From positions 91,543-155,542 of the forward strand of contig CAVXJC010000008.1 in the NCBI GenBank assembly GCA_963762075.1: a stretch of DNA of 64,000 nucleotides. The letters are read 5' to 3'. Origin of the DNA: an uncultured Actinomycetes bacterium (lineage in GTDB: Bacteria; Actinomycetota; UBA4738; HRBIN12). The notes beneath the pieces are model-generated. The model saw only the letters and a list, made by a program, of their open reading frames with translations, did no database searches and was not told the origin of the DNA. Positions 16,714 through 20,546 of the stretch are shown here, piece after piece (the stretch's first letter is position 1; each line of letters begins with the position of its first letter). Made by a program: the position numbers and the translations under genes.

Positions 16714-18258
16714 CTACGCGGACCAGGCGGCCTCGAGACGGGGGAACAGCGACTCACCCTTGACCGTTTCCGTACCCACCGCGAGCCCGCCCCACGCGCC
16801 TGAGGCGGGAAGTCGCTGATCCGCGAGAGGTTCGCCGATGCCGAGCTGGGACCAAAGATCCGCGGCGGCCCCGGGCATGATCGGCGCGATCGCGATCGCC
16901 AAAACCCGCAGCGTCTCGGCCGCGGCGTAGAGCACGCTCGCCAGCTCATCGCGGCTGGCGGGGTCCTTGGCAAGCTTCCACGGTTCCTTCTCGACGAGGT
17001 AGTGGTTGGCTCGGGCGACGATGTCCCACACCGAGACGAGCGCCGGCTGGAGCTGCATGTCGAGCATGTGACTGTCGTAGCGACCGAGAGCGTCCTCGAT
17101 CACGGCGGGCATGTCACTCTCGGCCCCGGGCGTGACGGGCTCGGGCACGAGGCCGTCGAAGTAGCTGGCGAGCATGGCGAGCACACGACTCGCGAGGTTG
17201 CCCAGCCCGTTCGCAAGATCGGCGTTGTGCCGCTCGGTCATCGCCTCCCACGAGAAGTTCCCGTCCTGACCGAACGAGATCTCCCGCATGAAGAAATAGC
17301 GATACGAGTTCACACCGAAGTGGTCGATGAGCTCGAAGGGGTGGATGCCGGTGCCCTTGCTCTTGGACATCTTCTCGCCGCTCACATTGACGTGCCCATG
17401 GGCGAACACCGTCTTGGGGACTTCGACACCCGCGGCCATCAGCAAGGCCGGCCAGATGACCGCGTGGAACCGGATGATGTCCTTGCCGATGATGTGTACG
17501 TCGGCCGGCCACAACCGCTCGAACATGCTCTGGTCGGTCCCGAAACCAACCGCGGTCGCGTAGTTGAGGAGCGCGTCCACCCACACGTAGACGACGTGCT
17601 TGGGATCCCACGGCAAGGGGATGCCCCAATCAGTGCCGGACCTGGAGATCGAAAGGTCATCGAGCCCTCCGCGCACGAACGAGACCATCTCGTTCCTACG
17701 GAAGTCCGGCAGCACGGATCCTGGAACACCAGCGTAGAGGTCGAGCAACGGCTGCTGATACTTCGAGAGCGGGAAGAAGTAGTTCTCCTCGCTCAAGATC
17801 TCCACAGGCCGTCCGTGGATCGGACAGTTTCCGTCGATCAGCTCCTTCTCCCGTTTGAACTCTTCGCACGAGACGCAGTAGGGGCCCTCGTAGGTGCCCA
17901 GGTAGATCTCACCGCGGTCATGGAGTCTCTGCACGAAGGCTTGCACCCGCTCGGCATGACGCGCTTCCGAGGTCCGGATGAAGTCGTCGTTGGAGATCTG
18001 GAGCCGAGCCCAAACGTCCTGCCATTTGGGCACCATGCGATCGACCCATTCCTGCGGCGTGATCCCGAGTTCCGCCGAGGAGCGGGCGACGTTGAGGCTG
18101 TGCTCGTCGGTCCCTGTGAGGAAGTGCACAGCCTCACCCCGCTGCCGTCGATACCGCGCGATGAAATCGCAGGCGATGATCTCGTAGGCGGTTCCGACAT
18201 GAGGCTCGGCGTTCACGTACGGGATCGCTGAGGAGATGAAGAAGGTATCCCGGCCCAT
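16714..18258 (-). CDS. metG: Methionine--tRNA ligase
   Basis: IPYVNAEPHVGT, LTGTDEH, CVSC..CPIH knuckle, YVWVDALLNY, GKDIIRFH, KMSKS. Confidence 0.98.
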   Translation of the reverse strand: MGRDTFFISSAIPYVNAEPHVGTAYEIIACDFIARYRRQRGEAVHFLTGTDEHSLNVARSSAELGITPQEWVDRMVPKWQDVWARLQISNDDFIRTSEARHAERVQAFVQRLHDRGEIYLGTYEGPYCVSCEEFKREKELIDGNCPIHGRPVEILSEENYFFPLSKYQQPLLDLYAGVPGSVLPDFRRNEMVSFVRGGLDDLSISRSGTDWGIPLPWDPKHVVYVWVDALLNYATAVGFGTDQSMFERLWPADVHIIGKDIIRFHAVIWPALLMAAGVEVPKTVFAHGHVNVSGEKMSKSKGTGIHPFELIDHFGVNSYRYFFMREISFGQDGNFSWEAMTERHNADLANGLGNLASRVLAMLASYFDGLVPEPVTPGAESDMPAVIEDALGRYDSHMLDMQLQPALVSVWDIVARANHYLVEKEPWKLAKDPASRDELASVLYAAAETLRVLAIAIAPIMPGAAADLWSQLGIGEPLADQRLPASGAWGGLAVGTETVKGESLFPRLEAAWSA

Positions 18259-18283
18259 GATCGGGTCATGATACGAGGGCGTG

Positions 18284-18308
18284 CTACTAGTCTGGATCAG
18301 ACTAGTAG
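18284..18308. repeat. Perfect inverted repeat between divergent promoters (candidate operator)
   Basis: CTACTAGTCTG-GAT-CAGACTAGTAG, 11-bp arms, AT-rich relative to its surroundings. Confidence 0.75.
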
Positions 18309-18312
18309 TGCC

Positions 18313-18342
18313 TTGCCCGCCTTCCGGGCTCGGGTGTAGCGT
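18313..18342 (+). promoter_or_regulatory. Putative sigma70-type promoter
   Basis: TTGCCC-N18-TAGCGT. Confidence 0.55.
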
Positions 18343-18348
18343 TCTTCC

Positions 18349-18512
18349 GACGGCGACACCTTCACGCCGAACCCTCGCTCCCGGACCCCACGCAGCCGGC
18401 TCGAGAGGGCAAAGGGGCTCCGCCTCGAAGGCGGCGTCTGCTGGTGTACCCCTGGGCCGACGGCACGGGAGCGTGGGTCTCGACCGCGCGGCCCTCGAGG
18501 AGGGAACAGCAG
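18349..18512 (+). ncRNA. Candidate structured cis-regulatory leader RNA
   Basis: Several stems and two loop-to-distal complementarities found by eye; the last hairpin includes the RBS. Confidence 0.5.
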
Positions 18513-19178
18513 ATGACCACCGACAAGGCTCGCAAGAAGGCGACCCGCACCCGCATGACCAAGACCGGCGAACGCTACACGGCGGCCCGGCGACAGGTCC
18601 TGGGGGCTGCATCCATCGCGGAACCAGTGACGGAGGACCTCGGGCAGTCCGACGAAGCCATCCGGCGAGGCTCGGGCAAGGACTGGAAGCAGTGGTTGCG
18701 ACTGCTCGACGCGTGGCAGGCGACATCGCGGACGCATCGCGAGATCGCGCGCTACATGCACGACGAGCACGGAGTCGACGGTTGGTGGGCGCAAGCCGTG
18801 ACGGTCGGCTACGAGCGGGCGCGAGGGATGCGCGCCGTGAACCAGCGGGCCGACGGCAGCTACTGTGCCTACGCATCGAAGACCTTCGCGGTCGATGCGC
18901 TGACGCTGTCGAAGGTGTTCACCGAGGCACGGCGCCGCAGACGCTGGCTGGACCCGGGCACGCTGCGCGTGCGGACGTCACAACCCGGGCGCTCCGCGCG
19001 GTTCGACGTGAACGATGGCTCGGGAACGAGGATGTCCGCGTGGTTCACGCAGAAGAGCGAGCAGAGGTCCGCCGTGCATCTCCAGATCGACGGACTCGAG
19101 GACCCCGGCGAGGTCGAGCGAGCGAGAACGATCTGGAAGGAGCGACTGGGGGCGCTCGCCGAAACGTTCGCGCGGTAG
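18513..19178 (+). CDS. Uncharacterised protein with basic N-terminal motif and DUF4287-like domain
   Basis: GAGGAGG RBS; MTTDKARKKATRTRMTKTGERYTAARRQV; SGKDWKQWLRLLDAW..HGVDGWWAQAVTVGYE. Confidence 0.8.
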   Translation: MTTDKARKKATRTRMTKTGERYTAARRQVLGAASIAEPVTEDLGQSDEAIRRGSGKDWKQWLRLLDAWQATSRTHREIARYMHDEHGVDGWWAQAVTVGYERARGMRAVNQRADGSYCAYASKTFAVDALTLSKVFTEARRRRRWLDPGTLRVRTSQPGRSARFDVNDGSGTRMSAWFTQKSEQRSAVHLQIDGLEDPGEVERARTIWKERLGALAETFAR

Positions 19179-19225
19179 CGCGAGCGGTCCTGCCAACCCA
19201 GCCAGCCCGGACTCGGTCGCGTTGA

Positions 19226-20047
19226 TCAGACGTCGAGCAGCGCTCGGTAGAGCTCGTTGACGCTCACGCCGTGGCGATCGGCGACCGCGTGCGCCGCGTC
19301 CCGCTTGCGCATGCCACCCGACACCAGCTCACGCGCCTCATCGGCGCACGCCGACATGTCGGGTGCGGGCCGCACCCGCTCTCCTCCGATCACGACGACG
19401 ACCTCACCCTTGAGCTCTGATTCGCCGAGTCGCGACAACACCTTGCTCACCCGGCCACGAACGACCTGCTCGTGCAGCTTCGTCAGCTCCCGCACGACCG
19501 CGATCTCACGGTCGCCGATCGCAACGAGCACGTCACGCAACAGGGTCTGCACACGCAGCGGCGACTCGAACACGATGATCGTGCGCGGCTCGTGACGGAG
19601 CCCCTCGAGCCGGCGCACGCGCTCGCCCGGCTTCCGCGGCAAGAAGCCCTCGAACACGAACCGATCGGTCGGCAGACCCGAGACGACGAGCGCCGCGATC
19701 GCGGCCGACGGGCCGGGCACGACCTGCACCTCGACGCCGGCGTCGATGCAGGCGCGCACGAGCCGATAGCCGGGGTCCGAGACGGCCGGGGTGCCCCCGT
19801 CGCTCACGAGCGCGACGTCGTCGCCGTCGCCGAGCCGGCGCAACAGCTCGTCGAGGCGCTCACGCTCGTTGCCCTCGAAGTAGGAGATGAGCGGCACCTT
19901 GATCTTGAGACCCGCGAGCAGGCGCCCGGTGCGACGCGTGTCCTCGCACGCGATCAGGTCGACCTGACCGAACACCTCGCGGGCGCGCGTCGACAGATCG
20001 CCGAGGTTGCCGATCGGGGTCGCCACGAGCCACAAGGTTCCACCCAT
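19226..20047 (-). CDS. rsmI: 16S rRNA (cytidine1402-2'-O)-methyltransferase
   Basis: LVATPIGNLGD, ACEDTR, VSDGGTPAVSDPG, FEGFLP, RELTKLHE. Confidence 0.97.
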   Translation of the reverse strand: MGGTLWLVATPIGNLGDLSTRAREVFGQVDLIACEDTRRTGRLLAGLKIKVPLISYFEGNERERLDELLRRLGDGDDVALVSDGGTPAVSDPGYRLVRACIDAGVEVQVVPGPSAAIAALVVSGLPTDRFVFEGFLPRKPGERVRRLEGLRHEPRTIIVFESPLRVQTLLRDVLVAIGDREIAVVRELTKLHEQVVRGRVSKVLSRLGESELKGEVVVVIGGERVRPAPDMSACADEARELVSGGMRKRDAAHAVADRHGVSVNELYRALLDV

Positions 20048-20120
20048 GGCATCAGAGTGACACGATGAGCGCCCAGCGCCCACGGGCGGAAGTTCAGGAT
20101 GTTCATACGATGAGGCAACG

Positions 20121-20546
20121 ATGGCCCAGGGACACAAGGACTACTCGGCCACCCCGTTGTGGAAGAAGCTCGGCATCAGGCAGGGGTCACGGGTCGTGCT
20201 CGCCGACGCACCAGGCGGGTTCGACGATCTGCTCGAGGCACAGGCGCCGCTTCCCCCGGAGGTCGACTTCCTGGCGAGGGTCCTCAAGGGCATCGACGTC
20301 GCGGTGCTGTTCGTGACCCAGCGCCGGGTGCTGGAGCGCCGGTTCGGAGCGCTGCAGCGCTCGCTCGAGCCGAACGGACGACTCTGGGTCGCGTGGCCGA
20401 AGCAGGCGTCGAAGGTCGAGACCGATCTGTCGTTCGCCGTCGTGCAGCGCCACGGTCTCGACGCCGGGCTCGTGGACAACAAGACCGCCTCGATCACCGA
20501 TGTCTTCCAAGGGTGCCAGTTCGTGCTGCGACTCAGGGATCGGTAG
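20121..20546 (+). CDS. DUF3052-like protein
   Basis: YSATPLWKKLGI, LWVAWPK, GLVDNK. Confidence 0.8.
   Translation: MAQGHKDYSATPLWKKLGIRQGSRVVLADAPGGFDDLLEAQAPLPPEVDFLARVLKGIDVAVLFVTQRRVLERRFGALQRSLEPNGRLWVAWPKQASKVETDLSFAVVQRHGLDAGLVDNKTASITDVFQGCQFVLRLRDR

Follow-up and report, generated by a model that had tools for sequence, protein, structure and literature searches.

A conserved kissing-loop leader RNA is co-inherited with a basic N-terminal peptide on unrelated bacterial proteins

The window analyzed here is a stretch of 64,000 nucleotides (nt) from an uncultured Actinomycetes bacterium (GenBank assembly GCA_963762075.1, contig CAVXJC010000008.1, positions 91,543 to 155,542, forward strand). 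We examined a gene of 221 codons on its plus strand (18513-19178), which encodes a protein of 221 amino acids, together with the 5' leader RNA of about 164 nt that precedes it (18349-18512, plus strand). Residues 1 to 30 of the protein, encoded by 18513-18602 on the same strand, form a conserved basic peptide, and the leader and gene are referred to below as a cassette. The leader region has a G+C content of 72% and lies in a divergent spacer of 255 bp, with metG (minus strand, ATG at 18258; Pfam tRNA-synt_1g, E 1e-102) on one side and the 221-codon gene on the other. An rsmI-like methylase gene (19226-20137, minus strand) is located downstream. An initial annotation of the window had described the leader as a riboswitch-like or autoregulatory RNA with a pseudoknot, possibly bound by the Lys/Arg-rich N terminus of the protein.

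Homologous loci were gathered from the genomes of relatives and from metagenome contigs. In all 55 homologous loci, the protein match opened at an aligned start codon (54 ATG and one TTG) followed by T and the same peptide, which sets the translation start at ATG 18513. The GTG at 18444, a start that the initial annotation had listed as evidence against a leader, is therefore excluded. The 160 to 170 nt upstream of the homologous genes aligned throughout, and the indels in this region were not multiples of three.

Conservation of the leader was visible already among close relatives. A blastn search with 18200-18560 against the genus genomes matched leader bases 18365-18428 at 74 to 82% identity, and the matches were located upstream of a paralogue in the same genome and of homologues in other genomes, whose proteins were only about 40 to 46% identical. 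The leader is thus more conserved than the protein it precedes. Folded as a single sequence, 18340-18520 had a minimum free energy (MFE) of -77.1 kcal/mol, whereas its shuffles averaged -80.2 (z = +0.61); at least as good a fold was reached by 142 of the 200 shuffles. Because this stability is not above that of the shuffles, it is no evidence either way. Next, the structure was tested on A1, a structure-blind MAFFT alignment of 51 leaders. RNAalifold, which cannot draw pseudoknots, mixed P3 with the kissing pairs on this alignment, and therefore a hand-set structure of five helices was used and then tested (P1, P2, P3, P4, and a pairing of the P3 loop with a 3' segment). In A1, 96.9% of the 1375 cells were paired, compared with 37 to 50% when the 3' partners were slid by 1 to 3 columns; 10 pairs were changed on both sides, and none of 500 shuffles reached any of the five measures. 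R1, a covariance model of the nested helices, scored the window leader at 107.7 bits (E 8e-25) and aligned 85 leaders from several phyla to give A3. Here, 97.7% of the cells were paired, compensatory changes were found in 20 of 27 pairs, and none of 500 shuffles was as good, with the proviso that A3 was fitted to P1-P4, so that the counts for those helices lean towards the model. Unpublished genomes (G020, G059, G122, G144, G147, G171, G187, G215, and G282) are within the genus, class, and phylum counts and supply a few rows of A1 to A3; no conclusion depends on them, since public contigs underlie the test on 80 loci described below and the greater part of A1 and A3. These results show that the leader is a conserved folded RNA consisting of P1, P2 enclosing P3, P4, a variable P5, and a kissing mini-hairpin. 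A lack of conserved or covarying structure upstream of homologues, which the initial annotation had named as a way to refute it, is contradicted by the A1 and A3 statistics.

The individual elements, all on the plus strand, differed in how strictly they were kept. The P1 hairpin (18351-18369) pairs GGCG (18352-18355) with CGCC (18365-18368) across a pyrimidine-rich loop; 99% of its cells were paired, and the stem was near-invariant (GC/GC/CG/GC in 77 to 84 of 84 rows), with a few CG swaps. P2 (18372-18409), formed by CCCTC (18372-18376) and GAGGG (18405-18409), encloses P3 and was 100% paired in A1 with three covarying pairs and 99.5% paired in A3, where all five pairs covaried. The P3 hairpin (18381-18399) joins CCGG (18381-18384) to CCGG (18396-18399), with only four pairs in the window and six in most relatives; it was 96.7 to 97.4% paired, with covarying pairs in 4 of 6 positions in A1 and 6 of 6 in A3, and its loop, CCCACGC (18387-18393), is one side of the kissing contact. 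The junction GGCAAAGGGG, the bases of which were invariant or nearly so across 51 leaders, is followed by P4 (junction and P4 together, 18408-18426), in which GGGGC (18414-18418) pairs with GCCTC (18422-18426) around the loop TCC. P4 was 87.8% paired in A1 and 95.2% in A3 and has a G-U pair conserved in 62 of 84 rows; because this pair would be A-C on the other strand, the folded molecule is the plus-strand RNA. The variable region, P5 (18427-18467), between P4 and the kissing hairpin, differed among relatives in length and sequence. Every sequence makes its own hairpin or hairpins there, and no conserved pairing was found in this region among the helices paired in at least 85% of 73 leaders.

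The kissing mini-hairpin (18468-18480) consists of the stem GGA (18468-18470) with TCT (18478-18480) and a 7-nt loop, GCGTGGG (18471-18477), that is complementary to the P3 loop. The loop-loop pairing was 100% paired in A1 and 97.7% in A3, and 4 of its 7 pairs covaried in A3 although it was outside R1. Whole-helix variants were observed (CCUGCGC/GCGCAGG, CCCCCGC/GCGGGGG, CCCGCGC/GCGCGGG, and UCCACGC/GCGUGGA). In addition, 55 of 65 distinct leaders formed all three flanking pairs of the mini-stem, whereas shuffled controls did so in 25 leaders on average and in 33 at most; the pairs covaried, with GGA/UCC, GCG/CGC, CAG/CUG, GAG/CUC, and GCA/UGC among the types. The pseudoknot that the initial annotation had drawn between 18387-18393 and 18471-18477 was therefore right in its pairing, which is conserved and covaries, and needed revision in its form: as the 3' partner is itself a 7-nt hairpin loop, the contact is one of kissing loops. 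The linker (18481-18512), as read from the sequence, contains a local hairpin of CCCTC (18492-18496) with GAGGG (18500-18504) and the Shine-Dalgarno (SD) run GAGGAGGG (18497-18504).

All of the stems first annotated can be read in the window at the positions given for them, and comparison with relatives showed which of them are real. Of those at 18351-18355/18365-18369, 18372-18376/18405-18409, 18381-18384/18396-18399, and 18492-18496/18500-18504, the first three are P1, P2, and P3, which are conserved across relatives and covary. The stem AGGGG/CCCCT enclosing CCGCCT/AGGCGG was not conserved, and the family P4 takes the other form given above. Two further pairings, ACACC/GGTGT between loops and CGCTCCCG/CGGGAGCG as an alternative fold, can be read in the window sequence; neither was among the helices paired in at least 85% of 73 leaders. 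By this comparison, two stems and the second loop pairing of the initial annotation are peculiar to the window sequence. As a separate observation, the 3' strand of P1 (CACGCC or CGCGCC; 18363-18368) is similar in sequence to the P3 loop and might likewise pair with the loop of the kissing hairpin at 18471-18475. The corresponding A3 columns (15-20 with 210-215) were 96% paired over 73 leaders, which may reflect a competing contact or a coincidence of similar sequences.

A promoter-like element (18313-18342, plus strand) precedes the leader and consists of TTGCCC (18313-18318), an 18-nt spacer, and the -10 hexamer TAGCGT (18337-18342). Of 84 leaders, 76 had a TANNNT hexamer that began 12 to 16 nt ahead of the first G in P1 (at -15 in the window), and such hexamers were almost absent from the rest of the 60 nt upstream. 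Because the -10 box stands at a fixed distance before P1, transcription should start at the foot of P1; the transcription start site (TSS) would lie near 18348-18350, and the leader would be the 5' end of the mRNA. This agrees with the promoter and the start proposed in the initial annotation, and a TSS near the ATG, which would have spoken against it, does not fit a conserved -10 box that places the start about 164 nt upstream. A consensus sigma-70 promoter scan made no call at the locus, and the promoter emerged by comparison only; a terminator scan found no terminator-like element at the locus. Among contigs assembled from RNA libraries, which may contain DNA and whose contigs show no ends, one covers 18357-18508 and another covers 18453-18618 with no differences, bridging the leader and the start of the coding region. 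Other contigs (X17 and X18) matched the conserved core only (18365-18428); because they carry differences and loose ends, they derive from relatives and are uninformative on this locus, as are the parts of the stretch that no contig covers.

The peptide encoded directly after the leader was also conserved. The consensus of its first approximately 30 residues is MTxxKxxKRxVRxRMxKTGE[SR]YTAARR, with 9 or 10 Lys/Arg among 30 residues, and M1, T2, K8, R12, R14, M15, T18, G19, E20, Y22, and R26 were invariant in 24 diverse peptides. The Lys/Arg-rich N-terminal segment of the initial annotation is thus present and conserved across homologous loci. AlphaFold2 predicted two helices for the peptide of the window protein (residues 3-18 and 22-29), and the tag is followed by a flexible linker, rich in Pro and Ala, whose length varies. 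The peptide codons varied at synonymous sites, and a search of 73 leaders for a leader-to-coding helix gave only a 4-bp match of invariant bases, which together indicate that the peptide is conserved as protein. A peptide profile, searched against 1.84 billion representatives, matched 4232 protein clusters (E <= 0.001), and the motif began at residue 1 in 129 of 150 among the matches listed. The peptide matched no Pfam family (best E 0.078), had no sequence match in the Protein Data Bank (PDB) at E <= 10, and gave no lead in the ESM Atlas; no NCBIfam family was found for the window protein. The idea that the peptide resembles highly basic ribosomal proteins was set aside, as no such Pfam family matched at E <= 10.

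The association of RNA and peptide was then examined from the side of the peptide. A 34-column alignment of the 24 peptides served to fetch loci from genomes, one per species; the pattern RMxKTGE[SR]Y gave at least 463 confirmed places, and 80 loci were kept. At all 80 loci fetched by the peptide, R1 matched the same strand directly before the start codon, with E <= 0.0032 in 79 of them and E 0.016 in L175, which is cut by a contig end. The loci came from Chloroflexota, Actinomycetota (including Streptomyces and Micromonospora), Acidobacteriota, Planctomycetota, and Gemmatimonadota, and included one metagenome-assembled genome (MAG) of Polyangiaceae and one of Heliomicrobium. In most matches, R1 reached the start codon. 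The initial annotation had suggested collecting proteins with the motif and looking for a shared RNA upstream; the RNA was there in every case, its stems and kissing pairing covary, and Pfam scans found differing C-terminal domains behind the conserved leader.

Searches from the side of the RNA gave a consistent result. The genome of the window had exactly two strong R1 matches, namely the window leader and the leader of the paralogue, and both were followed by the peptide. In the class sample, 30 of 151 genomes had R1 matches, and 31 of 31 fetched loci encoded the peptide directly after the RNA. Twenty-seven of these loci were homologues of the window protein, and four differed or had a broken continuation: L121 has a BtrH-like continuation, as read by eye (in cassette proteins comparable to it, Pfam identifies BtrH_N and DUF4872), L120 is a truncated version of this type, L116 looks frame-shifted, and L097, from a genus genome, carries a VOC/glyoxalase-like domain after a one-base frame shift (1665-2113), the result of either a pseudogene or an assembly error. 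Three weaker matches comprised one probable false positive and two relics that lack the peptide and are followed by unrelated genes; L202 (170-276) keeps the 5' half only (P1-P5), and L203 (162-291; unpublished genome G122) has a mutated P3 loop and has lost the kissing pairing. In the phylum sample, 18 of 151 genomes had matches, and 17 of 18 new loci carried the peptide or close variants of it (KTSE, HTGE, and ATGQ), the remaining one being a 30-bit match inside a coding region. A sample drawn around one Chloroflexia genome (G311) had matches in 3 of 151 genomes; as this means only 2 of 150 besides the central genome, the distribution of the cassette is patchy. Four of five carrier genomes searched had one or two copies, and the fifth, G315, had no genome-wide R1 match, its copy reaching only 22 bits in the locus scan. 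A blastn search of plasmids gave no match. Altogether, RNA and peptide are strictly co-inherited across several phyla and unrelated cargo.

Several observations concern individual copies. The second cassette of the window genome (G000:C6:158408-159221; L002/L085) has a leader of 127.5 bits and a protein with 42% identity to that of the window, and it is this paralogue type, not the type in the metG/rsmI spacer, that occurs in most genus genomes. In a Chloroflexia MAG (L165), an intact cassette is preceded, at a distance of about 870 bp, by a degenerate second leader of 68 bits (479-631) that lacks the kissing 3' strand and does not end at an ATG. In L121, a tRNA gene (1408-1480, 73.2 bits) ends about 20 bp before the cassette leader, which might mark an integration hotspot. 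Two metagenome contigs (L081 and L083) encode a variant peptide, MTTDKARKTAIRQRMAQTGEPYSVAR, of the QTGEPYSVAR type, with a different upstream sequence.

The protein behind the peptide was less uniform. The window protein consists of the basic peptide, the linker, a four-helix DUF4287-like domain (residues ~47-103), and an SRPBCC/Aha1-like domain (~117-220), and it has 2652 homologues. The AlphaFold2 model had a mean predicted local distance difference test (pLDDT) score of 94.2, with less confidence in the linker, and Foldseek matched Aha1/SRPBCC chains (Aha1, CalU16, and YndB types) with a probability of 1.0 and a target-normalized TM score of up to 0.67. The C-terminal 110 or so residues are thus predicted, on this model, to have an SRPBCC/AHSA1-like helix-grip fold; Pfam AHSA1 matches homologues, with no match to the window protein itself. 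The DUF4287-like domain of the initial annotation was recovered weakly, since PF14117 matched the window protein with 17.6 bits (E 0.004), below the gathering cutoff of 27 bits; homologues of the same architecture passed the cutoff (P0252 with 43.6 bits and L185 with 35.6 bits). Pfam was also run on 61 of the 150 listed proteins from the peptide profile (length of at least 121 amino acids), which gave DUF4287 in 13, AHSA1 in 5, BtrH_N/DUF4872 in 5, and single cases of OmdA, GerE, Ala_racemase_N, FGE-sulfatase, Abhydrolase_1, PG_binding_1, and WD40. Among 54 of the 80 genome loci, 27 had DUF4287, AHSA1, or Polyketide_cyc2, 15 had BtrH_N with or without DUF4872, and 12 had nothing; a nitrilase-like domain was read by eye after the peptide in one phylum-sample locus. 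The tag and RNA are therefore attached to at least ten unrelated protein families. The upstream neighbors of 58 loci were unrelated to one another, except within one clade of closely related Chloroflexia, where a class-V aminotransferase recurs. At the window locus itself, a perfect 11-3-11 palindrome, CTACTAGTCTG gat CAGACTAGTAG (18284-18308), lies in an AT-richer patch 26 to 50 bp upstream of the metG start; 18200-18306, comprising the metG 5' end and the palindrome, matches about a dozen genus genomes at 73 to 80%, whether or not the cassette is there, and the palindrome looks like a metG operator outside the RNA module.

Next, the leader was compared with known RNAs. A permissive cmscan of 17500-20000 against Rfam 15 gave no match in the leader at E <= 10, in line with the statement of the initial annotation that it recognized no known RNA family, and a scan of 16 motif-carrying loci at E <= 1 found only the tRNA in L121. 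An L2-Alphaproteobacteria match at 17846-17899 (18.7 bits) lies inside metG on the other strand and is due to chance. No published description was found in Rfam or by full-text searches of literature outside subscription journals, save for a possible overlap with one preprint (bioRxiv 10.64898/2026.10.21.760802). The accessible text of that preprint describes a covariation-supported noncoding RNA motif, cluster #566,452, directly upstream of unannotated YndB-like proteins. The likeness lies in the position upstream of YndB/SRPBCC-like proteins, since the window protein has such a domain, and the difference lies in the domain order, as the YndB-like domain is N-terminal there and the SRPBCC domain is C-terminal here. 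The text accessible in that source gives no sequence, taxa, or structure and mentions neither a conserved N-terminal peptide nor other cargo; cluster #566,452 may be the same RNA.

The reading we favor is that of a self-contained cassette in which the leader controls translation and the effector is probably the cassette's own basic N-terminal peptide; it is put forward tentatively, at slightly under an even chance. Such a cassette would comprise its own promoter, a structured leader of about 160 nt, a ribosome-binding site (RBS), and an open reading frame with a basic two-helix tag, a linker, and variable cargo. Control by the leader would act on translation of the gene behind it, and the co-inheritance of RNA and peptide suggests the cassette's own peptide as the effector. 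Binding of the peptide to the folded leader could provide feedback control of each tagged protein or form a lasting RNA-protein particle. A switch can be imagined in which the UCC/UCU strand on the 3' side of the mini-hairpin has two alternative partners, the GGA 5' arm, which would leave the SD free, and the SD itself; in the window, the bases 18478-18483 are able to pair with 18495-18500. Ribosome access would then depend on whether the kissing complex forms, a step that is a hypothesis without comparative support. The more general form of this idea, a portable "aptamer plus tag" pair of an approximately 160-nt kissing-loop RNA and a peptide of about 30 residues that recognize each other and were grafted, promoter included, onto many unrelated proteins of Actinomycetota, Chloroflexota, Acidobacteriota, Planctomycetota, Gemmatimonadota, and other phyla, would be slightly less probable again. 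The riboswitch-like or autoregulatory character assigned to the leader in the initial annotation is supported by the coupling in 80 of 80 loci, the covariation, the varied C-terminal domains, and the lack of an Rfam match.

Known systems offer partial precedents for the favored reading. Autoregulatory leaders bound by the encoded protein include ribosomal-protein leaders, phage T4 gene 32, and the threonyl-tRNA synthetase operator. The cassette resembles these in having a structured 5' untranslated region (UTR) RNA by the RBS, of a kind that is often pseudoknotted, a basic and presumably nucleic-acid-binding product, and strict co-occurrence, and the RNA adjoins the RBS and start codon of the gene for the presumed binder, a likeness of position only. 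It differs in that the presumed binder would be a tag of about 30 residues rather than the whole protein, and in that tag and RNA occur on at least ten unrelated families in several phyla with no rRNA mimicry evident. Lambda N/boxB and HIV Tat/TAR are pairs of an arginine-rich peptide and an RNA hairpin that act in trans, in antitermination or activation. They share with the cassette a short, basic, helical N-terminal peptide that could recognize a folded RNA alone, whereas here the RNA is the leader of the peptide's own mRNA and the peptide is a hairpin of two predicted helices in which M15, T18, G19, E20, and Y22 are invariant. N-terminal encapsulation or targeting peptides on enzymes of bacterial microcompartments are amphipathic and have no dedicated upstream RNA element. 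The likeness is a short N-terminal helix with a poorly conserved linker on unrelated enzymes, but the present peptide is strongly basic and has a dedicated upstream RNA.

A number of results weigh against control by the peptide. Evidence for transcription is weak, being confined to RNA-library contigs that possibly contain DNA. When the segment downstream of the kissing loop was folded by MFE, 35 of 75 leaders had at least three of the four SD core bases paired, and the helix between the anti-SD arm and the SD averaged 4.25 bp against 4.11 with shuffled partners (standard deviation, 0.13), with no covariation. The peptide core is constant while the loop sequences change, and hence the peptide does not read the kissing helix by sequence. 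In L081 and L083, a similar peptide occurs with no R1 match at E <= 1. In addition, the co-inheritance could stem simply from the adjacency of RNA and peptide and their joint movement. Finally, conservation in several phyla and highly conserved unpaired bases are also typical of metabolite riboswitches.

The main rival, and a serious one, is therefore a metabolite or ion riboswitch, in which the P1-P4 and kissing core would bind a small ligand and gate the RBS, and the peptide would travel by adjacency and have a separate job as a targeting tag, degron, or nucleic-acid tether. We regard it as rather unlikely, although clearly the strongest of the alternatives. The covarying conserved core with invariant unpaired bases such as those of GGCAAAGGGG, its occurrence in several phyla, the position in the 5' UTR next to the SD, and cargo of a small-molecule-binding or detoxifying kind (SRPBCC, VOC, YdeI/OmdA, and hydrolases) would all suit it. 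The ZTP and purine riboswitches consist of two sub-domains, connected by a linker that varies and by a long-range contact of the pseudoknot or kissing-loop type, and by analogy with such classes the architecture here is similar, with a covarying core, a variable insert (P5), a fold-closing loop contact, and a site just upstream of the SD. Riboswitches normally precede genes that have their own N-termini and one metabolic theme. The leader has in common with riboswitches a covarying structured domain in the 5' UTR, and it has no Rfam match. In contrast to riboswitch-controlled genes, the heterogeneous genes behind it show no metabolic or transport theme and share only the N-terminal peptide. 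No ligand common to the cargo families is obvious, no transporter or biosynthetic gene was found among cargo or neighbors, and the peptide-less copies (L202 and L203) have decayed. A riboswitch would leave the constant presence of the peptide (80 of 80 and 31 of 31 loci), the sole constant here, unexplained.

The remaining alternatives were considered less probable. A trans-acting factor (for example, a ribosomal or global RNA-binding protein, an RNase, or a small RNA) could co-regulate the cassette genes as a regulon while the peptide serves a common cellular role of the proteins; the near-invariant P1 stem with its pyrimidine-rich loop suggests sequence-specific recognition, and one or two copies per genome fit a small regulon. 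This is improbable: no conserved neighbor gene could encode the factor, the patchy spread (18 of 151 phylum-sample genomes and 3 of 151 in the set drawn around a Chloroflexia genome) needs a factor that is universal or moves along, and the strict link to the peptide is unexplained. Marginally less probable again is a stable ribonucleoprotein, in which the leader, possibly processed off the mRNA, would be held by the tag and bring enzymes to a common RNA scaffold or site. Strict co-inheritance across unrelated cargo and the flexible linker after the tag agree with it, and a precedent by analogy exists in omega RNA with IscB/IsrB, a structured RNA encoded just upstream of its protein partner. 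This precedent is mentioned in the accessible text of the preprint cited above (bioRxiv 10.64898/2026.10.21.760802). On the other hand, the RNA reaches the SD and the start codon, which is what one expects of a cis-regulatory leader, no sign of a processing site or stable fragment was seen in RNA-library contigs, which cannot show ends, and the cargo domains are without known RNA-directed activity. Stems arising by chance at high GC, an operator acting at the DNA level, or a coding sequence extended upstream could be invoked from the G+C content of 72% and a single-sequence fold no stabler than shuffles. Such explanations are scarcely credible in view of the compensatory changes in 20 of 27 pairs, including G-U intermediates, the covarying long-range loop-loop pairing, the P4 G-U pair that would be A-C on the opposite strand, the indels that are not multiples of three, and the conserved ATG start.

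Leaders that respond to their own encoded protein have been described for individual families, ribosomal proteins among them. A leader inherited with a short peptide tag, before unrelated enzymes in several phyla, would be a modular control device. If the "aptamer plus tag" idea is true, the tag would place any protein that carries it under the same feedback in cis through its own mRNA, or would lead to its assembly on the same RNA. If the peptide binds the RNA, the pair would be a ready-made orthogonal RNA-peptide handle for synthetic biology, and thousands of "hypothetical" proteins with this N terminus (4232 clusters) would be explained. If the leader is a riboswitch instead, it would be a new, widespread orphan class with an unusual obligate peptide partner. 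Because the cassette is present in cultivable actinomycetes, with records from Streptomyces, Micromonospora (such as M. andamanensis), Planobispora (P. siamensis), and Streptomonospora (S. halophila), the question is directly testable.

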